The translations under genes were made by a program, and so were the position numbers. From the IMG/VR virus record IMGVR_UViG_3300025133_006513, positions 53,289 to 117,288 of that record: 64,000 nt of DNA. One strand, written 5' to 3'. This DNA comes from a virus (taxonomy: Duplodnaviria > Heunggongvirae > Uroviricota > Caudoviricetes). Shown piece by piece: positions 19,826-53,514 of this stretch; within the stretch, counting starts at the first letter, position 1, and every line of letters starts with the position of its first letter. The notes under the pieces were generated by a model. That model saw only the letters and a list, made by a program, of their open reading frames with translations, had not been told where the DNA came from and searched no databases.

Positions 19826-20092
19826 ATGGGGACAACGCTAGTACCCGTGCCGTGGAAGTTTCAGAATAGAAAGTGCTGCCATCACTGTAAGCTGGTTTTC
19901 CCTGTGAAGGCGACAGCCGGGTACTGCCCGCACTGCTGGCCTCGCAAATGTTTTGTTGACGTCGGCCAGTTCAGATGGATTCGTACAAGCAAGTGGTGGG
20001 AGTTTTGGGTTCGCGGTAAAGGTTACTGGCTACCCATGATGGCGCCATTCACCCGGTACGCAGATGCACCGCCGCGGCCGCCTAGTCGGTAA
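19826..20092 (+). CDS. small zinc-ribbon protein
   Basis: Strong RBS AGAAGGAGGTGAAAC. CCHHC...CPHC motifs. Confidence 0.55.
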   Translation: MGTTLVPVPWKFQNRKCCHHCKLVFPVKATAGYCPHCWPRKCFVDVGQFRWIRTSKWWEFWVRGKGYWLPMMAPFTRYADAPPRPPSR

Positions 20093-21965
20093 GTACCTCG
20101 TCGTCCCAGTCAGAGTCTTTCTGCATTGTTGCAGCCTTGAGCTGCTCCTGCGTGATCTCGTACTGGGCCATCTCTGCGAGGTTCGGCCACCGCTTACTGC
20201 GGTACCAGATGGCTGTGGCGCCAAGGTTAACCGCCTGGGCAAAGTCATCAGAGAACCCGTCCTGCCGTGTGATCCGATAGATCTCCCCGGCAGACATGGT
20301 TGTAACCTTGTCTTCTACAAGGGCCAGGAAGTCGCGGATTAATCCAGCATCCTCTTGGCTCTTGTAATCAGCGTCGAAGAACCTCATCATCCCCGTCTTG
20401 ATCATCGCACAACATAACAAGAGCGTACGGCTCTTATCCACGCGATAGTGAGACCTGGGGTGCTGCTGTGTCGGCGCGACGTGGTAACAGGGCTGCTGCG
20501 AGGCAGACCGCACGTACTGACAAGGCATACTCTCACGGGCTTTAAGCCCTGCCTGAATAAGGAATGTCTCACGCAGAGCACCGGCACCAGTGTAATCGTG
20601 AGCGAGGATCGTCGGACGGAATATGTCCCACATCTTCTTAATCTCACGAGCCTCCAACAGGTGATCGTGCGGAGTCAGCAATCGACGACCATAGATCACT
20701 TCGATCGAACCGTCTAGGCGGAGGCCAAGCAGTGCGGCAGTTGTAAAGCTGACCTTCTTCTCGCCACCACCACCCCAGTCAACACCCAACACAGTCATGC
20801 GGTACTTACCGCGGCGTGCTTTGGCATGCTTTATCGTATTAGGGCCTAGATTCGACACCTTGTCGAGTTCTGTAAGGGTAACGAGTTTGGCAGCCGTATC
20901 GTACGACTCACCAAGCACTTCGTTAAAGAACACGTTCGCCGGCGTGTTACCCTTACCGGCCTGCTTCGATAACAGTTCAGCCCACTTGTCGGGCTTGCCG
21001 TAGTGCAGAGGCATAATCACCTGCGGGACGTGGTAGCCAGCCTGCCACCAGACCCTGGCAGGGAATCGGTGGATCCAGCGGCCCATGCGAGGGCTGATGG
21101 CTTGACCGCACTTGTAACAAAGAGTCGCAGGGTGTTTCTCAGAGATATCGTCGTGGTAGGGTCCAATCATCTTCTCAAGATGGAACTCCATTGTGGGTAT
21201 ATTCCACGTGGGGTGCCCGCCCGTGGTGCAATGTAAGCACGGGATGAACCACTCAGCCTGTGAGGACTCCTGCCACAACGCTTCAAGCGTGTTGTCCAGG
21301 GTCTTAGGCGTGCCCGTGAACTGGCGGAGCGCCAGGTCAGAGGCAGACATTGTTTCACGAATGATCGGGATATGCTCATGGTTCATATCCTGGACTTCAT
21401 CGATCGCTACCTTGTCGGCCGAGATGCCGCGACAGCGATCTGCGTTGAGGAACGCGAAAGAGAACAACATTTTTGAGTTGTTGCGGAAGCTCCGATGCAG
21501 CACGGAGTTTACCGTATCTGTGCCGATCCACATGTCTTTGACAGGGGATTGGTCGATAAAGGGCTGCACAAACATGGAACTGAAGCGGCGTACCTGTTCG
21601 AACAGCGGCATCACGTAGAGCGTGGTGCGGTTAGGTAAGGCCTGTGACAGTACAACCCCGTGAGCTGCCAGCGACGTACTCTTGGATACTTGGCGACCTG
21701 TCTTGTAAACTAGAGCTGACGGCATACGAAACCGGAAGACCTCCTCAAATGGGAAGTGATCGATTAACGAATACGGTTCCCCTTTGAGGTTGAGCAAGAG
21801 AGGCAACGAATGGGCCATCGTATCTAGATTGCCCGATCGTATCATCTTGTTGTAGGCATTAATGCTATCAGATGGCGATGCGTGCTGGGCACTTCCCCGC
21901 ACAGTATTGGTAGCTGCTAGCATTGCCTCCACTAACGCCGGTTCCACTAAGACGGGATTAAGCAT
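20082..21965 (-). CDS. terminase large subunit (ATPase plus RNase-H-like nuclease); alternative GTG start at 22040
   Basis: Walker A KTGRQVSKST. Walker B VAIDEVQD. Nuclease-domain motif MTVLGVDWGGGG. GGAG RBS lies before ATG 21965. Confidence 0.8.
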   Translation of the reverse strand: MLNPVLVEPALVEAMLAATNTVRGSAQHASPSDSINAYNKMIRSGNLDTMAHSLPLLLNLKGEPYSLIDHFPFEEVFRFRMPSALVYKTGRQVSKSTSLAAHGVVLSQALPNRTTLYVMPLFEQVRRFSSMFVQPFIDQSPVKDMWIGTDTVNSVLHRSFRNNSKMLFSFAFLNADRCRGISADKVAIDEVQDMNHEHIPIIRETMSASDLALRQFTGTPKTLDNTLEALWQESSQAEWFIPCLHCTTGGHPTWNIPTMEFHLEKMIGPYHDDISEKHPATLCYKCGQAISPRMGRWIHRFPARVWWQAGYHVPQVIMPLHYGKPDKWAELLSKQAGKGNTPANVFFNEVLGESYDTAAKLVTLTELDKVSNLGPNTIKHAKARRGKYRMTVLGVDWGGGGEKKVSFTTAALLGLRLDGSIEVIYGRRLLTPHDHLLEAREIKKMWDIFRPTILAHDYTGAGALRETFLIQAGLKARESMPCQYVRSASQQPCYHVAPTQQHPRSHYRVDKSRTLLLCCAMIKTGMMRFFDADYKSQEDAGLIRDFLALVEDKVTTMSAGEIYRITRQDGFSDDFAQAVNLGATAIWYRSKRWPNLAEMAQYEITQEQLKAATMQKDSDWDDEVLTD

Positions 21966-22123
21966 GTATAACTCCGATGAGGATGAAGACTTGCAAAAGT
22001 TCGACTGGGTCGAACAACAGTGCAAGCAATTTTGGCCCACACCGGGTCATTTCTGGGCCACCGTAGTGCTAGTATGGCTAGCATATATGGTAGTCTGCTG
22101 TCTGTAGCAAGATAGCACAGGTC

Positions 22124-23190: not shown

Positions 23191-23526
23191 ATGGCAGACG
23201 AACCAAAGAAGAAGTTCTACGATGACATCAATGAGCAGCTCCACACTGTTGTGAAGGAGCTTATGGCTGAACACCCAGAGTTAGAGGGGGTGGCTATGGC
23301 CGTTGTATATGACCCAGCACTTGGCGATCTACCGCCGGGGTTGGTATTTGGTAATCTGCAGAAACCTGAATACCTATGCCAAGTTGGCGTACAAGTAGCA
23401 AAGTTACAAGCAATGATTGCTGGCGGGGTGTCTATGCATTTCGCAGAGGCAGGAGCTGCAATCCAACAAGAGAAGAAGGATATTGATGGCGAAGAAGGCG
23501 ACAACGGGAATCAAGGCTCCGCGTAA
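23191..23526 (+). CDS. hypothetical protein
   Basis: 111-aa ORF. Confidence 0.5.
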   Translation: MADEPKKKFYDDINEQLHTVVKELMAEHPELEGVAMAVVYDPALGDLPPGLVFGNLQKPEYLCQVGVQVAKLQAMIAGGVSMHFAEAGAAIQQEKKDIDGEEGDNGNQGSA

Positions 23527-24127
23527 GCGGAAGATAGTCCAAGCAGGGTTAGGCAGTCTAACCGCGCTGATATCTCACCTAAAGATAAACACCTGGGATG
23601 CCATAATCGTCGGTGACGGTTCTGGTACTGGGTGGAAGATGGGAGCAGGCTGGTCCTCAGTGCTTATCGATAAGTACAGTGGCTCCAGGAAGCTATTCTA
23701 TGGTGCCCTCAACTGTGGCACGATCACTTTAGGTGAACTCTTTCCCTATCTGCACGCTATGTCTTGGTACACCAGCAAGGACGGCCCTGGACGGGCCCGC
23801 CGTCGTGAACTCCAAAACATACAGAAGCAGATGCAGATCCATGTTGTGACAGACAGCCAGGCTATCGCTACGGCTGGTAATAACCCGGGCTCCCGGCGGT
23901 CACATCAAGAGTTCTGGGCAGCTTTCGACGAATACAGAAAACGTGGCTTTATCATCACGTTCCATTACGTGGCGCGTGATCGTGTTGACTTGAACGTCTT
24001 AACAGACGCAGTATCCCGACAAGCGAGGCTTGATGTCCAAGAAACGTACTCCCGAGCAACAGAAACGCTCACCAAAAAGTACCCAGGAATCCCCGACGAC
24101 GTCACCATCTACGATTTCTCCCAGTAG
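23486..24127 (+). CDS. RNase H-like (type 1) protein
   Basis: AGAAGGA RBS. IIVGDGSGTGWKMGAGWSSVLID and HVVTDSQAIA resemble the RNase HI DGS and TDSQY motifs. Confidence 0.5.
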   Translation: MAKKATTGIKAPRKRKIVQAGLGSLTALISHLKINTWDAIIVGDGSGTGWKMGAGWSSVLIDKYSGSRKLFYGALNCGTITLGELFPYLHAMSWYTSKDGPGRARRRELQNIQKQMQIHVVTDSQAIATAGNNPGSRRSHQEFWAAFDEYRKRGFIITFHYVARDRVDLNVLTDAVSRQARLDVQETYSRATETLTKKYPGIPDDVTIYDFSQ

Positions 24128-24185: not shown

Positions 24186-24566
24186 ATGCAGGTCGTTAGG
24201 TTCTTCGAGCAAGAGCTCGGTATTGTTGCGAAAAAGATATATCGCAGCATGAAGATGGAACGCTTCCGCATTTACTACGGCAACCCGGTGACCGGGCGGG
24301 CGTGGGACGAGTGCGATGAAGGCCATATATCTCTAAGTCTTGGGGACAATCCTGTCCTCATAGTTCAGCATAATGTTGACTCCCCAGAGGCCAGCGTCAT
24401 CTTGATGAATAACATCGTCAAGATAAAGGCTTGTCTCGGCGGGCGTGTAATCTATCGCCACCCGCGGTTCCATACTCACGAAGAGAGGGCACCACAGGTG
24501 GAGGATGATGCAGTAATGCAACGCACCCCGCGTAAAATCTCCTTAGGAAGGAAGCGCGATGGCTAA
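24186..24566 (+). CDS. hypothetical protein ending ...RTPRKISLGRKRDG
   Basis: ORF frame of 24030..24566. The first ATG after the upstream stop is at 24186. Confidence 0.45.
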   Translation: MQVVRFFEQELGIVAKKIYRSMKMERFRIYYGNPVTGRAWDECDEGHISLSLGDNPVLIVQHNVDSPEASVILMNNIVKIKACLGGRVIYRHPRFHTHEERAPQVEDDAVMQRTPRKISLGRKRDG

Positions 24567-25185
24567 GTCAGATCAACCATCTGTCCCAGATATGATTAGT
24601 GAGTTTCGTTTGAGTAGGATGGGGCAGCACTGGGTGCGGCTATACGCCCCACTTACTCTGCAAGTGGGTGCAGTCTTGCATTACTACGCTAAGATGGTCG
24701 AGAAGCATGGCCTGGTGCCGCGATGGCGAGTTACTGTTCGCTACATTCACGGCTATTGGCATTCTGGCTACGTGATGCGACAAGAATGGCCCGGGCCAGG
24801 GGGTCAGCTGATGGCCAAGTTAGTGCTGCAGGAGTCCAGTCGTAGCGGCTTCCGCCCCGCCATACAAACGGAATACATCGATCGAATCTTGCATAGCAAT
24901 GCCAAGTATGGCGGAGCAATTGCAGGTAATCGGGTGTCACCGGTACTAGCAAGGGATAAAGCCAACGCGTACCTACAAGACCATGGGTATCCCACTACAT
25001 TTGCGATAGATGATCGCAGGAGTCGTTCTGCCATGAAGGGCGTACGTACACGTAGAAGAAATGCAAAGGCCGCTACTGTTGTTGAAACACACGGCCGACA
25101 ATTTCGTAAGATTAGACTGGATGCAGATGACAAAGTTACAGCAGGAGCGACGAAGCTTTCAAATGGACAAGCAGCTACTGATTGA
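24559..25185 (+). CDS. hypothetical protein with ...GRQFRKIRLDADDK... near the C-terminus
   Basis: The start context GGAAGGAAGCGCGATGGC is near-identical to that of the AAA+ gene at 3182. Confidence 0.55.
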   Translation: MAKSDQPSVPDMISEFRLSRMGQHWVRLYAPLTLQVGAVLHYYAKMVEKHGLVPRWRVTVRYIHGYWHSGYVMRQEWPGPGGQLMAKLVLQESSRSGFRPAIQTEYIDRILHSNAKYGGAIAGNRVSPVLARDKANAYLQDHGYPTTFAIDDRRSRSAMKGVRTRRRNAKAATVVETHGRQFRKIRLDADDKVTAGATKLSNGQAATD

Positions 25186-26980
25186 CGTTATTAAGCGTCA
25201 AGCAGGTAGCTTATGGAAGGCCATCAGCGAGGCGATTATGAACGCCGTTGATGCTGGTGCGACCACGTGCGATATTGAGTTGACTCGAGAGATGCTCATC
25301 ATCAAGGACAACGGCAAAGGTTTCCGTTCCCGTGCTGATGTTGAGAACTTCTTTGAGATATTTGGCAAGCCACACGACGCCGCAGAGGATAAGACGTTTG
25401 GCCGGTTCCGTATGGGTCGAGGACAACTATTTGCCTTTGGTGCAAATACATGGAGATCCAACACGTTCCAGATGAGCGTGAATATCAATGAGGAGGGGTT
25501 AGACTACCACCTCACAGAGAACCTGGAGAAAGAGCACGGCTGTGCTATCAACGTACGGCTGTACAAGACGCTTAGTCACACGCACTACGCGAACATCTTG
25601 GAAGAGATCGCCAACAACGGTAAGTATATTGGGATCCCTGTCACGCTCAACGGCAAAGCCTTCCCTACCGATCGATCGCAAGTGCGATGGGATATCGAGA
25701 TGGAGGAGGCAGATATCAAGCTCAGGTCCAATCAGGATCTGCGGATCTACAATCAGGGCATCCTGGTTAAGTCGTTCTACCGGCACATACACGGTGTCGG
25801 TGGTGATGTTGTGACAAAGGTGCCTATTCAAGTCAACTTTGCACGTAACGACATCATGGAGGATTGTCCTGTCTGGGGCAAGATCTTGCGTAAGCTGCGA
25901 CGTCACGCCAACGGCCAAGCAACAACCACGCGGGAGTCGCAGGGGAGGGCTACGCGAACTTCAAATTACGAGCGGCGGGCTACGGTAAAGCTAACAGAAG
26001 AAGATCGTCGGCGGTTGGTCAATCAGACCAAGGACGGCATACTCACACATAACCAGTACAAAGGTGCGAGGATCTGGCAGCGGTGCACCAAGCCTGGCGA
26101 TGTGACTGTGCGTACAATCTGGAATGAGTGTGAAGGTCGTGTGACCATGACACCCGCAGCAGACACACGTGGGCATCGTTACTCGGAAAGACGGTGGCGA
26201 CAAGAGATCGCACAGATTGAAAACAACAAGCTTGCTGTGGTACTTCCACGACTATTGCTTGATCGTTTTAATCTTAGTGACCTCGGCAAGATGGTCGCGC
26301 TATCGAATACTAATATCTACGCGCATGATAAATACCATCTGCAGTACATCCCCTGGGCAAAGTTAATGAAGACGCTGCAATCTGACTCGCAGGTGATAGA
26401 CACAGAAGAGCTTAATCAGCTTGAATTAACTGTGTTGTGCGTGTTACGAGAAGCCAAAGAGTATTTATTCGCTGACTGCCCCTTACCCGAGGGAACCACC
26501 GGTGCAGACGTTGAAGACCGAGTGTTGCAGGTCGGGCGATCACCACTCGAATCGTGGACAGACGGTGAGTCGATGATTGGGTTCTCTCGCGATTACATAC
26601 AGCGTGTAGGTATCGGGTTTGGTGCCTGGTACCAGTATGGTTATCGAATTATGCACGAGTCGCTACACAACGAGCGAAGCGATAGCAGACACGGACATGG
26701 CCCAAAATTCTACGCGAATTACCACCAGTGGTGTGCGGGCGGCACGAGCCTGCCGGCGTTCTTACACCGCTGCATGTCGATTACATCACGCGTAGCTCAC
26801 GATGTGGGTCTCACGCTAACGCAGCAGGAGTTTGCACGCCTGGATAAGTTTGAAGAGATGCAGGAAGAAGCAGCAGCACAGGCAGCACGTACGTCGCAAC
26901 CGGCTCCCGAGCCAGAAGCATCGCAGCCTGCGGACGTTTTACAACCAGTACCATTTCTTTTACCTAGAGACGGAGACTAA
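25163..26980 (+). CDS. GHKL-family ATPase (MutL/MORC-like Bergerat fold) fused to a C-terminal SprT/WLM-like HExxH domain; alternative start at 25121
   Basis: N box EAIMNAVDAGA. G1 box IKDNGKGF. G2 box FGRFRMGRGQLFAFGA. C-terminal MHESLHNERSDSRHGHGPKFYANYHQW fits the HExxH-x(n)-HG-xxF/Y pattern. Confidence 0.6.
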   Translation: MDKQLLIDVIKRQAGSLWKAISEAIMNAVDAGATTCDIELTREMLIIKDNGKGFRSRADVENFFEIFGKPHDAAEDKTFGRFRMGRGQLFAFGANTWRSNTFQMSVNINEEGLDYHLTENLEKEHGCAINVRLYKTLSHTHYANILEEIANNGKYIGIPVTLNGKAFPTDRSQVRWDIEMEEADIKLRSNQDLRIYNQGILVKSFYRHIHGVGGDVVTKVPIQVNFARNDIMEDCPVWGKILRKLRRHANGQATTTRESQGRATRTSNYERRATVKLTEEDRRRLVNQTKDGILTHNQYKGARIWQRCTKPGDVTVRTIWNECEGRVTMTPAADTRGHRYSERRWRQEIAQIENNKLAVVLPRLLLDRFNLSDLGKMVALSNTNIYAHDKYHLQYIPWAKLMKTLQSDSQVIDTEELNQLELTVLCVLREAKEYLFADCPLPEGTTGADVEDRVLQVGRSPLESWTDGESMIGFSRDYIQRVGIGFGAWYQYGYRIMHESLHNERSDSRHGHGPKFYANYHQWCAGGTSLPAFLHRCMSITSRVAHDVGLTLTQQEFARLDKFEEMQEEAAAQAARTSQPAPEPEASQPADVLQPVPFLLPRDGD

Positions 26981-27818: not shown

Positions 27819-28353
27819 CGAGAACGCTCCTTTCAAAATTGCAGTACTAGAGTTGGACAATGATTTCATGAAGCTGCTGTCGCAGTTAGCGGCAGATGCA
27901 ATAACTGCTCACGAGGCGTACAGAGCGATACGTGAGCTTCAGTACACAAGTCCCAAGGTCATCCAACTTCATGGCCCGGACCTGTCCGAGTGGGTTACAC
28001 ACACCACAGGCGTGTGGGGCAGTAATTGGCATAGCGAGCTCGTCTCTCAAGGCGCCACGCTAATGCCGCTGCAGTACGCATACACACGTGCGGTATGGTC
28101 GCAAGACACCTCAAACTGCCGACTCATCGTATCTATCGCTGAGCTGCAGGACCCACAGATAAACTGGCGATTCTACTCAGAAGCCAGTGAAGAGTTTTTC
28201 ACCCAGCCACTGCCGTTGTCGAAGTATAAATTCTTCAGCAAACTGCAGATGGAAGACACCACGTTTAAGAGGGAACATGTCCTTACCCGAAGCAATCGAG
28301 AAACTACGGGACCAGATTCGCCACCACGACAAACAGTACTATGTACTGGGTGA
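27781..28353 (+). CDS. hypothetical protein (3' end overlaps the ligase start by ~77 nt)
   Basis: 190-aa ORF. Confidence 0.4.
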   Translation: MIPRIALTARSTNENAPFKIAVLELDNDFMKLLSQLAADAITAHEAYRAIRELQYTSPKVIQLHGPDLSEWVTHTTGVWGSNWHSELVSQGATLMPLQYAYTRAVWSQDTSNCRLIVSIAELQDPQINWRFYSEASEEFFTQPLPLSKYKFFSKLQMEDTTFKREHVLTRSNRETTGPDSPPRQTVLCTG

Positions 28354-30358
28354 GTCCGATATCCCCGACGTTGAGTACGACAAGTTATTCCAGCGGCTAG
28401 TGCTGATGGAAATTAATAACCCCGAGCTGGTGACGGACGACAGTCCCACCCAGCGAGTCGGGGGAGCTCCTATTGAGGGGCTAGAGTCTGTTGCACACCT
28501 GGTTCCAATGATGTCCGTCGATAACGGTTTTGATATGACCGTCCTGGACAAATTCCATGAGAGAGTTACCAAAGTACTAGGTCACGAACCGCTGTACGCT
28601 CTGGACTGGAAGATCGACGGCTGCGCAATCAGTCTCATTTATGAGGACGGTAAGCTGATACGTGCTGTATCTCGTGGTGACGGTATTATCGGGGATGACA
28701 TCACGCATAACGCTGTGTCCATCCGCGGTATTCCGTCAGAGATACTCAACCCCGTCTCTGGCGGGAAGCACGCTGGCTACAACCTGTCTGTTGACGGAAT
28801 CATCGAGGTACGCGGCGAAGCGTACATCCCTAACTCCGTCTTTCGTTCTTTGGTGGCTGCACAGGAGGCAGCTGGCGAAGAGCCTTTCAAGAATTCACGC
28901 AATGCCGCGGCGGGAGCCTTACGGCAGCGAGACCCCAAAGCATGTTACGAACGCAAGTTGTACTTCGTTGCACATGGCCTCGGGGCCTGGGCGCCAGACC
29001 TGGCGTGCACCTCTTGGCAGTGGGCCATGCTCATGCTGAATGAGCTCGGCATCCCCATGATCACCGATAGTCAGGGGGCCATGACCTACGAGCAGGCCAA
29101 ACACTCATTAAGCCTTCTCACTAAGCAGGTAGACGAGATCGACTACCCGGTGGATGGGCTCGTGCTTAAGGTTGATAACCTAGCCGATCGTGAGGCCTTA
29201 GGGTCAGCATCGTCTAAGTACGTGTCGTGGGCAATTGCCTACAAGTGGGAACGATACGAAGCTGAGACGAAGATCATACGGCTCGAGACGCAGGTGGGCA
29301 AACAGGGAACCCTGACGCCAGTTGCATACTACGAGCCCGTTGAGATAGCGGAGACAACCGTCCAGAAGTCCACGCTGTTCAACTTCGACGAGGTCAAGCG
29401 GTTGGATCCTCGCGTAGGTGACACCGTCACGCTGGAGAAGGCAGGGAAGATCATTCCTCACCTTGTCCGTGTACACAAACTCAAACGCCCCGAGAAGACA
29501 AAGAAGTTCACCCCTCCGAAGAAGTGTCCTGTCTGCAAGGGGGACACGGCTAAGGAAGGTCCGCTGGTAGTCTGCACTAACACTGCAGGGTGTCCAGCAC
29601 AGCTGGCTGCTGTTATCCGTTCGGCAGCCGATCGTACCAGAATGGATATCGATGGACTCGGGCCGTCTGCCATTGAGGCGATGATGGATGCGGGTGCTAT
29701 CACTGACTTCTCGTCGCTATGGGCTCTGGAGGCCACAGTGGGCCCGCAGGGCTGCATCCCCGGGATGACGGCTGGGAAGTCAAAGAAACTGCTGAAGGCC
29801 CTAGAAGAGGCCAAGACGCGGCCCTCGTGGCGGCTCCTGGCCTCACTCAACATCAAACACTGCGGAAGAACCGTCTCAGAGCTCGTGTGCAAGGCTGTAC
29901 ACGAGCACGCGAGGAAGGGTGAAAACAACGTGCTTGGGATGTTGGGCAACCGCTGGACGATGCAGAAGCTCCAATCCATTGAGGGTGTCGGAGCTGAGAC
30001 TGCGATCAGTATTCGAACCTGGTTCGATCGAGAGCGTAATCTCAAGTTGGTTAATAAGCTATGGAAAGCTGGCGTCAACTGCGGGCCCGCTGACCCGAAG
30101 CCAGAGGCGGCACCTACGGGCGCCCAGCCCTTCGCTGGGATGGCCATATGTGCAACCGGGAAGTTCGAGTCTTACACCCGTGAGAGTATCAGGCAAGCGA
30201 TTGTCGAACGCGGAGGTAAGGCACAGAGTAGTCTATCCAAGGGCACCAACATATTGGTGGCTGGAGACAAGGCAGGCGGGAAGTTAGATAAAGCACATCA
30301 ACTCGGCATTAAGGTCGTTGATGAGGCAGAGTTTAAGGAGTTGGCGGGTTCCGCGTGA
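28277..30358 (+). CDS. ligA: NAD-dependent DNA ligase
   Basis: GAGGG RBS. N-terminal Ia domain (YYVLGESDIPDVEYDKL). Adenylation motif WKIDG. Zinc finger CPVC...C..C. C-terminal BRCT domain. Confidence 0.85.
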   Translation: MSLPEAIEKLRDQIRHHDKQYYVLGESDIPDVEYDKLFQRLVLMEINNPELVTDDSPTQRVGGAPIEGLESVAHLVPMMSVDNGFDMTVLDKFHERVTKVLGHEPLYALDWKIDGCAISLIYEDGKLIRAVSRGDGIIGDDITHNAVSIRGIPSEILNPVSGGKHAGYNLSVDGIIEVRGEAYIPNSVFRSLVAAQEAAGEEPFKNSRNAAAGALRQRDPKACYERKLYFVAHGLGAWAPDLACTSWQWAMLMLNELGIPMITDSQGAMTYEQAKHSLSLLTKQVDEIDYPVDGLVLKVDNLADREALGSASSKYVSWAIAYKWERYEAETKIIRLETQVGKQGTLTPVAYYEPVEIAETTVQKSTLFNFDEVKRLDPRVGDTVTLEKAGKIIPHLVRVHKLKRPEKTKKFTPPKKCPVCKGDTAKEGPLVVCTNTAGCPAQLAAVIRSAADRTRMDIDGLGPSAIEAMMDAGAITDFSSLWALEATVGPQGCIPGMTAGKSKKLLKALEEAKTRPSWRLLASLNIKHCGRTVSELVCKAVHEHARKGENNVLGMLGNRWTMQKLQSIEGVGAETAISIRTWFDRERNLKLVNKLWKAGVNCGPADPKPEAAPTGAQPFAGMAICATGKFESYTRESIRQAIVERGGKAQSSLSKGTNILVAGDKAGGKLDKAHQLGIKVVDEAEFKELAGSA

Positions 30359-51864: not shown

Positions 51865-53514
51865 ATGAATCCTATGATCCCGGCCACCGAGGCCAACCCG
51901 ATGGCGGCGAGCCCAATGGTGTCGCATATACCGCCAGAGGCAGACCAGGCTGCGATGAGGCTTGATTTCCTGTTTATGCATATCGTGCAGCATCAGGGTA
52001 CGTTTGATCTTGCATATTCGCAGTTAGAGCCAGACATGCTGGCTAATAATCGTGAGATGCATTACCGGCATGTCTGGCGATGCATCAAGGCACACTGGGA
52101 TGAGTTCGGTCGCATACCTGCGTACGAATCCCTGTGCACAGCGGCACTCCCCGCCGTTGCTGAGGATAGCATCGCTAAGATGAGCAAAGCGGTCAAAGAC
52201 ATGATCATCGAGCAAACGGAGACGTTGCTTGCTTTCATGTACGCCCCTGAGCATAACGCAGAGAATCTTGAGGTAGAATTTGCTACGGCCATCTTACGCG
52301 AGCTCTTGATCGACAGAGGTCCTGAGCTTGAGATTCGTCGTGCCGTGGCGAGCGCAGCTACCAGCATGATTACTAACCTGCCAGATATTGTGCAGCGAGC
52401 CCAGAAGCGTATCGAGGACATCACGTCACTGGGTACGATACAGGAAGAGACCACTACCGTACCTAAGGTATGGGAACAGGTAGCTGTTCCTCGTGTACCT
52501 TGTGGTGTTGAATGGGTCGATACAATCATGGGCGGAGGTGCGGAGCCTGGTAACTGTATGGTCATCATGGGGCCGACAGGTGGCGGTAAAACCACAACCT
52601 CTATGCAAATCGCCGTCACAGCAGCAGCACTACAACCGATCGACCCGAACCCTGGGCTGGTTGTGTTCATTAGTTACGAAGATGACATGCGTATGATTCA
52701 GATTCGAGCCACATCGTGTGGTGCGAATGTGTTGAAGGACTCACTTCGTGATGCTAAATCAGGCGTGAGTTTCAGTTCTGTTGGGAATTTGAAGCCATAC
52801 GAACAGAGCTTGTATGGTGCAGGTATCCCGAAGCACGAGCGGCTTGGTGAGATAGAACGCATCAAGATGGCCGAGCCGTGGTTGGATAAGTACCTGCATC
52901 TGGTTGACTTTCATGATCCCGCTAAAGGTGGTCGTGGTGGTATTCCAGAGGTCAGGGCACGCCTTATGGCCCTCCAAGAGAAACATGGCCTGCCAATCAA
53001 AACAGTTGTCTTAGACTGGGCGGGTACGCTGGTAACCAACTACCTGCAAGGTATCGGTATCTCGGCGGACGGCTCCAGGATGTCGCTCGAGCTGCAAGAC
53101 CTTGTACGGAAGTGTAAGCATGAGCTGGGTATCCCTTTCGGGTGTACTGTATGGATACCGCACCAGTTGACAGGTAAGTGCAATAAAGCATCACCGTCGA
53201 CATTCCCGCATCACGCAGATGCTCAATGGTGTAGCACGTTCTCCGATCACGCGACGTATGCGTTTGTACTGGGGACTAAAGACAAAGAGCATAGTATCGT
53301 GCAATTCGGGGCCACTAAGACCCGACACGGTGAGACACCTGGCCCAATCATCCTTAAGGTGGACGGGGCATTCTGTCGTATGGTCGACGTTACCAAACAA
53401 TTCTCTGTTGATCGTATCTCTGGACGCTTGGTGCCCCAGAAAGACGCAGCAAAATTCCATGTTAGCGATGCGGCTATTGAGGCTGTATCGTCGGATGTAA
53501 ATAGTGATAGATGA
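51865..53514 (+). CDS. DnaB-like replicative helicase
   Basis: GGAGCC RBS. Walker A VIMGPTGGGKTTTSMQIA. RecA-like C-terminal domain. The primase lies immediately downstream. Confidence 0.7.
   Translation: MNPMIPATEANPMAASPMVSHIPPEADQAAMRLDFLFMHIVQHQGTFDLAYSQLEPDMLANNREMHYRHVWRCIKAHWDEFGRIPAYESLCTAALPAVAEDSIAKMSKAVKDMIIEQTETLLAFMYAPEHNAENLEVEFATAILRELLIDRGPELEIRRAVASAATSMITNLPDIVQRAQKRIEDITSLGTIQEETTTVPKVWEQVAVPRVPCGVEWVDTIMGGGAEPGNCMVIMGPTGGGKTTTSMQIAVTAAALQPIDPNPGLVVFISYEDDMRMIQIRATSCGANVLKDSLRDAKSGVSFSSVGNLKPYEQSLYGAGIPKHERLGEIERIKMAEPWLDKYLHLVDFHDPAKGGRGGIPEVRARLMALQEKHGLPIKTVVLDWAGTLVTNYLQGIGISADGSRMSLELQDLVRKCKHELGIPFGCTVWIPHQLTGKCNKASPSTFPHHADAQWCSTFSDHATYAFVLGTKDKEHSIVQFGATKTRHGETPGPIILKVDGAFCRMVDVTKQFSVDRISGRLVPQKDAAKFHVSDAAIEAVSSDVNSDR

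Follow-up and report, generated by a model that had tools for sequence, protein, structure and literature searches.

A GHKL ATPase fused to a minimal zincin in a large phage and on other mobile elements: a candidate ATP-gated protease

The stretch of DNA analysed here, hereafter the window, comprises 64,000 nucleotides (nt) of a Caudoviricetes virus (positions 53,289 to 117,288 of the IMG/VR record IMGVR_UViG_3300025133_006513) and belongs to a large phage, with genes for a terminase, an NAD ligase, an exonuclease, an SbcC-like protein, a helicase, a primase and a DNA polymerase. On its plus strand, an uninterrupted open reading frame (ORF) at 25061-26980 encodes a protein in which a GHKL ATPase is fused to a C-terminal zincin domain (Table 1). 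An earlier inspection of the window's letters, hereafter the sequence-only reading, had proposed a GHKL ATPase joined to a SprT/WLM-like HExxH metalloprotease-type domain, and the strings that it quoted (EAIMNAVDAGA, DNGKGF, GRFRMGRGQLFAFG and HESLHNERSDSRHGHGPKF) were all found where it had placed them. The coding region that it gave also held, except that the start it assigned, 25163, probably lies 36 nt downstream of the true one. An identical public protein (P0001, 617 amino acids, aa) begins at 25127 with the N-terminus MTKLQQERRSFQM, and ERRSF, encoded upstream of 25163, matches the conserved N-terminal ExRxF motif of the family in the homologue alignment, a motif that pairs with the first strand of Escherichia coli HtpG in hhalign. 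Because of these two observations, 25127 is most likely the true start rather than 25163. Residue numbering throughout counts the Met at 25163 as residue 1; the ‘residues 480-639’ of the sequence-only reading follow the longest ORF, starting at 25061. An upstream 208-aa ORF (24559-25185) overlaps the start at 25127 by 59 nt (23 nt if 25163 is used), and the same overlap is present in the public gene call.

The N-terminal module belongs to the GHKL superfamily. Pfam HATPase_c_3 (PF13589) covers residues 16-87 (E = 1e-8, 35.8 bits versus a cut-off of 25), so the profile search places the module where the sequence-only reading had put it, and the motifs are 96-100% conserved in an alignment of 109 homologues (28-53% identity), to which all conservation figures given here refer. 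In motif I, E23 is conserved at 98% and N27 and D30 at 100%, while in the ATP lid R83, G85, R86 and Q88 are invariant and G80, G87 and G93 reach 96-99%. The ExxxNxxD and DxGxG motifs, the Gly-rich lid and the curated profile of the superfamily are all present, together with the Bergerat alpha/beta sandwich fold. Fold comparison returned TRAP1 (score 18.3, 362 residues aligned), MORC3 (16.2, 241 residues), MORC2 (15.9, 246 residues), GRP94 (15.8, 329 residues), the topoisomerase II ATPase of phage T6 (15.6, 252 residues) and MutL (15.6, 236 residues), with alignments to two-domain modules spanning 232-252 residues. As these aligned lengths show, the module comprises the Bergerat fold and, in addition, a second domain of the transducer type.

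The ATPase module looks Hsp90/MORC/MutL-like and closest to the Hsp90 type, and is a member of none of these families. It shares with the Hsp90 proteins (HtpG, TRAP1 and GRP94) a Bergerat N domain with a strap and a second-domain Arg in an N-x-[SA]-R-[EN] loop, and the family profile aligned with E. coli HtpG over 94 N-terminal columns (hhalign, E = 5.9e-5). The loop, VNFARND in the window protein, with F226, A227, R228 and N229 all 100% conserved, resembles HtpG LNVSRE (Arg336), and the homologue on a Pseudomonas syringae plasmid has LNVSRTE, almost the Hsp90 loop. The catalytic arginine of Hsp90 proteins is Arg336 in HtpG and Arg380 in yeast Hsp82; R228 falls on Arg336 in a weak local alignment (hhalign, E = 0.04), from which we propose that Arg228 contacts ATP. 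The sensor residue in MutL and GyrB is a Lys. No match to the Hsp90 family proper (PF00183) was found, the alignment with HtpG being limited to the 94 N-terminal columns, and unlike Hsp90 the fusion is much shorter, occurs on mobile elements only and carries the zincin in place of the C-terminal dimerisation/client domain. MutL motifs I-II aligned over 36 columns (hhalign, E = 4.8e-8); neither the transducer nor the C-terminal Pfam domain of MutL was matched, and the NCBIfam MutL models scored 12-19 bits versus cut-offs of 180-840. In NCBIfam, every match (sacsin, MutL and a restriction enzyme) stayed below threshold and covered these same GHKL motifs. Two cysteines of the module are conserved as well, Cys127 (25544) at 97% and Cys235 (25868) at 100%, the latter lying directly past the Arg loop and replaced by Asp in the Photobacterium homologue; we speculate that they could have a metal or redox role, e.g. 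as a cysteine switch like that of Wss1.

Beyond the two-domain module, the fold alignments to TRAP1 and GRP94 extend to 329-362 residues, and the middle region of the model, in which R282 and A358 are the only conserved positions, may be the remainder of an Hsp90-like middle domain. The Arg/Thr-rich linker is an insertion confined to the phage clade, i.e. the closest homologues, with some relatives carrying runs such as RRRPRRRSTTTS, and could bind nucleic acid.

The C-terminal domain was placed by its fold and by sub-threshold WLM matches only. A separate AlphaFold2 model of residues 408-585 reached a confidence (pLDDT, predicted local distance difference test) of 94, and its core begins with a helix, continues with a sheet of three strands and the active-site helix bearing HExxH, and ends with a further helix; the best solved folds in comparison were selecase, Wss1, Spartan and abylysin. 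The metal motif is highly conserved (H498 97%, E499 95%, H502 97%, H510 92%, H512 98%, F516 96%). H512 persists in the divergent Acinetobacter, P. syringae and haloarchaeal versions, whereas H510 is there replaced by Glu, Cys or Ser, which argues for H512 as the third zinc ligand; H498, H502 and H512 are likely the zinc ligands and E499 the general base. The HExxH on an active-site helix after a mixed beta-sheet and the downstream third metal ligand, which define a zincin, were thus found together. With PF13589 above its cut-off and the catalytic residue sets of both modules conserved in the homologues, the motifs picked out by the sequence-only reading are not chance matches, and the catalytic centres of ATPase and zincin are apparently both intact.

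By sequence, nothing significant was found for this domain in Pfam, NCBIfam, PHROGs, PADLOC or the Protein Data Bank (PDB), whether by single-sequence or profile searches. A loose Pfam scan of 39 members returned WLM as the only recurrent family (8 of the 39, sub-threshold, best E = 0.002), and SprT-like, PhageMetallopep and M13 were matched once each. The window protein itself gave no WLM (PF08325) match, a PDB profile search did not find Wss1, and neither a SprT-like/Spartan (PF10263) profile match nor the protease plus zinc-binding subdomains of that family were found. Strict membership with E. coli SprT was tried and rejected, as hhalign to SprT/YggI pairs the HExxH helix only (E = 0.09). 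General Pfam scans, with no search dedicated to them, revealed none of the Spartan zinc-binding subdomain, the SHP, PIP and UBZ motifs or the SUMO and Cdc48 motifs of Wss1. Judged by the fold of its model, the domain is a minimal zincin of the WLM/SprT/minigluzincin kind, membership of neither Pfam family being demonstrated; the SprT/WLM-like assignment therefore stands for the zincin fold (structure prediction, fold matches and the HExxH...H pattern) and is not shown for strict SprT or WLM membership by sequence.

The metal site might instead belong to a nuclease or another non-peptidase hydrolase such as YbeY, whose motif is HGxLH, making the protein a MutL/topoisomerase-style ATPase-nuclease that acts on DNA or RNA. 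GHKL plus transducer modules are classically joined to nucleases, and the paraMORC families carry nuclease, TIR or other C-termini of unknown kind, with an HxH motif in the C-terminal domain of paraMORC5, a family defined by GHKL plus S5 in restriction-modification-type operons (Iyer et al. 2008, PMC2292703). Compared by description only, the paraMORC5 domain might be related; the fusion has H510-x-H512 but lacks a restriction-modification or helicase neighbourhood. Against a nuclease, the Glu after the first His, the general base of peptidases, is 95% conserved, and peptidases supply both the top fold matches and every recurrent Pfam match, so that we regard a nuclease as very unlikely.

Table 1. 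Features of the fusion gene and selected neighbours in the window
Feature	Position	Strand	Remarks
Large terminase, GpA-type	20082-22040	-	Amid a long run of plus-strand genes, 3 kb upstream of the fusion gene
236-aa ORF	23417-24127	+	No Pfam or PHROG match
Whole coding sequence of the fusion	25127..26980	+	617 aa plus stop; in-frame alternative starts 25061, 25121, 25163
N-terminal strand and first helix, Hsp90-like ‘strap’, ERRSFQMDKQLLIDVIKRQAG...	25127..25252	+	From hhalign to E. coli HtpG
GHKL motif I (N box), EAIMNAVDAGA	25229..25261	+	Catalytic Glu23, Mg-binding Asn27
GHKL motif II (DxGxG), DNGKGF	25307..25324	+	D49 99%; G51, G53 100%
GHKL glycine-rich motif III / ATP lid, GRFRMGRGQLFAFG	25400..25441	+	From conservation
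Second domain (transducer, S5-like)	25568..25924	+	Residues 136-254
VNFARND loop	25832..25852	+	Invariant Arg228, proposed gamma-phosphate sensor
Arg/Thr-rich linker	25925..25996	+	6 basic and 2 acidic in 24 residues; pLDDT ~61-79
Alpha/beta middle region	25997..26383	+	Residues 279-407; confidently folded in model, poorly conserved
Minimal zincin (WLM/SprT/minigluzincin-like) domain	26384..26743	+	
WTDG motif on the zincin beta-sheet	26555..26566	+	W465 100%, T466 99%, D467 91%, G468 92%
Metal/catalytic motif HESLH-x7-H-G-H-GPKF, HESLHNERSDSRHGHGPKF	26654..26710	+	
Two long C-terminal helices	26744..26893	+	Residues 528-577; candidate dimerisation element
Disordered Pro/Glu-rich tail	26894..26977	+	pLDDT ~50; not conserved
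NAD-dependent (LigA-type) DNA ligase, full-length	28187-30358	+	OB, HhH and BRCT domains

The two modules travel together. Searching with the single sequence brought up 439 relatives along the full length (530-680 aa). A zincin-only profile, scored against 1.84 billion representatives, matched 1,154 proteins at E ≤0.001, of which 976 reached E ≤1e-10, and the family comprises at least 1,150 clusters at 50% identity. Among the best 150 of these matches, most are 530-690 aa long with the domain at about residues 390-570, and the shorter ones look like fragments. The zincin almost never occurs apart from the GHKL ATPase, i.e. the fusion is obligate. Matches confined to residues 1-245 had raised the idea of other C-terminal fusions, which was rejected because the Acinetobacter (704 aa), P. 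syringae (802 aa), Armatimonadota metagenome-assembled genome (MAG; 541 aa) and haloarchaeal plasmid (572 aa) proteins keep WTDG and HExxH...H; a 768-aa Photobacterium protein is a further divergent member with the full architecture. Across phyla, the N-terminal module is 40-55% identical. No description of a GHKL-zincin fusion was found in the literature on GHKL or MORC proteins with metallopeptidases, on phages, on plasmids or on anti-defence, and the polyvalent-protein paper does not mention GHKL. That the combination is unrecognised in a phage replication region, as the sequence-only reading had remarked, is thus fair; it is by no means rare, however, as phages and plasmids carry a sizeable family of it. 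The parts, and the logic of a GHKL clamp plus an effector, are known; a protease as the effector, and the link to mobile elements, appear undescribed.

The family is restricted to mobile elements, where its neighbours are genes of DNA metabolism or establishment. In a related phage, a 38%-identical homologue lies in the same order, between the terminase and the ligase. Jumbo-phage contigs (335-385 kb) carry further homologues, as do 35 IMG/VR contigs, the longest of which has 479 kb; when 24 kb of the window were compared with GenBank phages by megablast, nothing matched. The inverted terminase arrangement recurs in the related phage, and a 385 kb phage contig has a minus-strand GpA terminase about 8 kb from its homologue. 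The 236-aa ORF at 23417-24127 co-occurs with the fusion gene in 21 fetched loci, including two Pirellula-type MAG contigs; a resemblance to RNase H seen by eye (DGSG ... GEL ... TDSQ) was not confirmed by a PDB sequence search. PLSDB yielded 198 plasmid records that encode a relative (89 from Acinetobacter, 50 from Pseudomonas, 22 from Xanthomonas), annotated as ‘ATP-binding protein’ or similar throughout, and 91 of these plasmids were typed as conjugative; the carriers include pAB3-type Acinetobacter baumannii plasmids, P. aeruginosa megaplasmids, pPT23A-type P. syringae plasmids and Xanthomonas plasmids. With one genome taken per species, 185,579 species yielded only 56 loci, many of them on plasmids or short contigs. 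Among haloarchaea, Natrinema, Natronorubrum, Natribaculum and Haloterrigena each hold several copies of a 572-aa version with all motifs (L038-L063, e.g. L058 7890-9608), and Natrinema hispanicum DSM 18328 alone has eight loci; as the copies share flanking ORFs, they suggest a repeated mobile unit.

The plasmid and bacterial contexts are varied. A homologue lies with a single-stranded DNA-binding protein (SSB), a thermonuclease, topoisomerase III and an LPD7 protein in Photobacterium, with gyrase and ERCC4 in Thioalkalivibrio, with DinG in Xanthomonas, and with a primase and ArdR in Stenotrophomonas, and a 1.09 Mb bacterial contig has Dot/Icm-type type IV secretion system (T4SS) genes near its copy. 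On the plasmid of P. syringae HS191 (L072 8989-11397), the 802-aa homologue has virB11 on one side and the coupling-protein gene virD4 on the other, with genes for TrbM, a type IA topoisomerase and SSB coming next. In pAB3-type Acinetobacter plasmids, the 704-aa homologue is immediately preceded, on its own strand, by an M48 metallopeptidase gene (L070 5009-5803, L071 8099-8839), a neighbour seen in this lineage only. A search for neighbours conserved in relatives, which had been recommended at the outset, was made by all-against-all ORF clustering over 108 loci, whose grouping by identity was too coarse for a strict test; neighbours were shared within the syntenic phage clade or among the haloarchaeal copies, and no family-wide partner emerged. 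The crosslink, DNA-processing and anti-defence roles that the sequence-only reading had suggested all fit these neighbourhoods.

Two other readings bear directly on these contexts. A chaperone-protease for the element's own virion or transfer-apparatus proteins, i.e. an Hsp90-like foldase with a processing protease unrelated to DNA, would suit the place within the T4SS gene row of P. syringae, the M48 peptidase gene that the fusion gene follows in pAB3-type plasmids, and the Hsp90 family as best fold matches with an N-terminal strap that aligns with HtpG. Phages, conjugative plasmids and haloarchaeal replicons have, however, no obvious structural substrate in common, the gene does not lie in a structural module in the window or its relatives, and neither an Hsp90 Pfam domain nor a client-binding C-terminal domain was found, and we consider such a function improbable. 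A defence or exclusion module, in which a GHKL sensor would control a toxic protease that aborts infection by competitors in the manner of paraMORC and GHKL-Shedu, has slightly more to recommend it, GHKL plus effector being a recurrent defence architecture (PMC2292703, PMC12137116); one homologue lies near DUF262, WGR and ADP-ribosylglycohydrolase genes and another near a HipA toxin module. Yet PADLOC returned only weak matches confined to the GHKL motifs (E = 0.0015-0.003, i.e. above 1e-3) and thus no membership of a known defence system. The gene belongs to an operon for T4SS and DNA transfer and replication (Dtr) in the plasmids of P. syringae and to replication modules in phages, which is atypical of defence islands, and a self-targeting toxin would be unexpected on phage contigs; a defence role therefore seems quite unlikely.

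Our preferred explanation, to which we give a probability of roughly 45%, is an ATP-gated, dimeric, DNA-associated protease that clears proteins from the DNA of the mobile element encoding it. Such a protein would be a two-engine enzyme, consisting of the GHKL ATPase (a Bergerat domain and a transducer with an arginine sensor), the middle region and the C-terminal Wss1/SprT-like zincin. In MutL, the C-terminal dimerisation domain carries the endonuclease site, and by analogy the fusion protein could be held as a dimer through its C-terminal part. ATP binding would then close the N-terminal domains into a clamp round a client, either DNA or a DNA-bound protein, and clamp closure would gate the client, or position it, for cleavage by the zincin. 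Such an enzyme could remove proteins bound to or covalently trapped on the element's DNA during replication or establishment, with host restriction, defence or silencing proteins and trapped topoisomerase or relaxase adducts as candidate substrates.

Clients on the element's DNA are favoured because Wss1, Spartan and ArdC are DNA-linked proteases and because of the gene contexts. Spartan and Wss1 are DNA-dependent proteases, and the fusion resembles them in its HExxH with a downstream His as likely third ligand and in its DNA-metabolism context; its G-H-G-x-x-F stretch is comparable to the GHGPEF of Spartan. It differs in having an ATPase of its own, where Wss1 and Spartan depend on a separate unfoldase such as p97/Cdc48. 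With MutL, MORC, paraMORC and VcSduA it would share an ATP-driven clamp plus a catalytic C-terminal domain (PMC2292703, PMC12137116), GHKL modules with effectors being exemplified by paraMORC3 (PMC2292703) and VcSduA (PMC12137116), and it departs from them in that its effector is a zincin peptidase rather than an endonuclease or TIR domain and in having no restriction-modification or helicase neighbourhood. Several observations weigh against a DNA-clearing protease. No DNA-binding domain was identified, the sole hint being the basic disordered linker of the phage clade; the sequence links to WLM and SprT are all sub-threshold; about 3-5% of members (e.g. P0022 and P0048) have lost HExxH while retaining the ATPase motifs, which indicates that the protease is not always required; no conserved partner gene was found, the small downstream ORFs in eight contexts being mutually non-homologous; and biochemical or genetic data on any member were not found in the literature searched.

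An ArdC-like anti-defence effector, made early and degrading host restriction or immune proteins, with the ATPase as a chaperone-like module for recognition or unfolding, overlaps with the DNA-clearing protease and differs from it in client and in its independence of DNA. T4 rIIA, a phage protein that like the fusion has an N-terminal GHKL module, bears on this alternative, as a viral structure library offered no named structures closer than the rIIA proteins (E = 2e-12 and weaker). The match is limited, however, to the N-terminal third, with a TM-score of ~0.33, no rIIB-like partner was noticed, and we know of no HExxH domain in rIIA. Membership in the rIIA family was rejected, as hhalign to T4 rIIA gave E = 0.17 and the sole PHROG match was phrog_6203, of unknown function. 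rIIA proteins are GHKL ATPases with variable C-termini that are regarded as counter-defence, and a survey of jumbo phages mentions GHKL proteins of the rIIA type and, independently of these, peptidases resembling SprT and ArdC (PMC7824862). ArdC itself joins a single-stranded DNA-binding domain to a Spartan-like protease, with Glu229 as third ligand, and sets a precedent for such a protease in overcoming restriction (PMC7213743). The fusion resembles it in being encoded by mobile elements, in joining a partner domain to a C-terminal Spartan-like zincin and in lying in transfer and establishment regions, where the plasmid copies have SSB, primase, ArdR and LPD-domain polyvalent proteins nearby; its partner domain is a GHKL ATPase instead of ArdC-N, and its third ligand a His instead of Glu. 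Neither an ArdC-N Pfam match nor any sequence similarity to ArdC was detected, nor was any known anti-defence family matched, the hhalign score with T4 rIIA being non-significant. The phage copies lie amid replication and repair genes, where no early or anti-defence cluster is obvious, and the high sequence conservation is unlike that of fast-evolving anti-defence proteins. On this evidence we hold a DNA-independent anti-defence effector to be unlikely, though less so than the defence module.

The DNA-clearing protease, if real, would carry a more general implication. To our knowledge, every ATP-dependent protease described so far is driven by a ring ATPase, of the AAA+ kind or related to it. 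That the family forms a new class of energy-dependent proteases, in which a GHKL ATPase in place of an AAA+ ring gates a zincin that strips or destroys proteins on phage, plasmid and archaeal-replicon DNA, is a tentative and on present evidence doubtful proposal; a protease coupled to a GHKL clamp, if true, would be a different solution to ATP-dependent proteolysis. It would represent a self-contained prokaryotic counterpart of Spartan/Wss1 plus p97, or a general anti-restriction or anti-silencing device. How prokaryotes handle DNA-protein crosslinks and proteins on incoming DNA is poorly understood, and the family is a testable candidate for this task. The elements that carry it are of practical importance, comprising plasmids of A. 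baumannii, P. aeruginosa, P. syringae and Xanthomonas, and its location inside the transfer gene row of P. syringae means that, as ArdC does, it could influence plasmid host range and establishment. That haloarchaeal replicons as well as jumbo phages carry it points to an ancient and general function of mobile elements.

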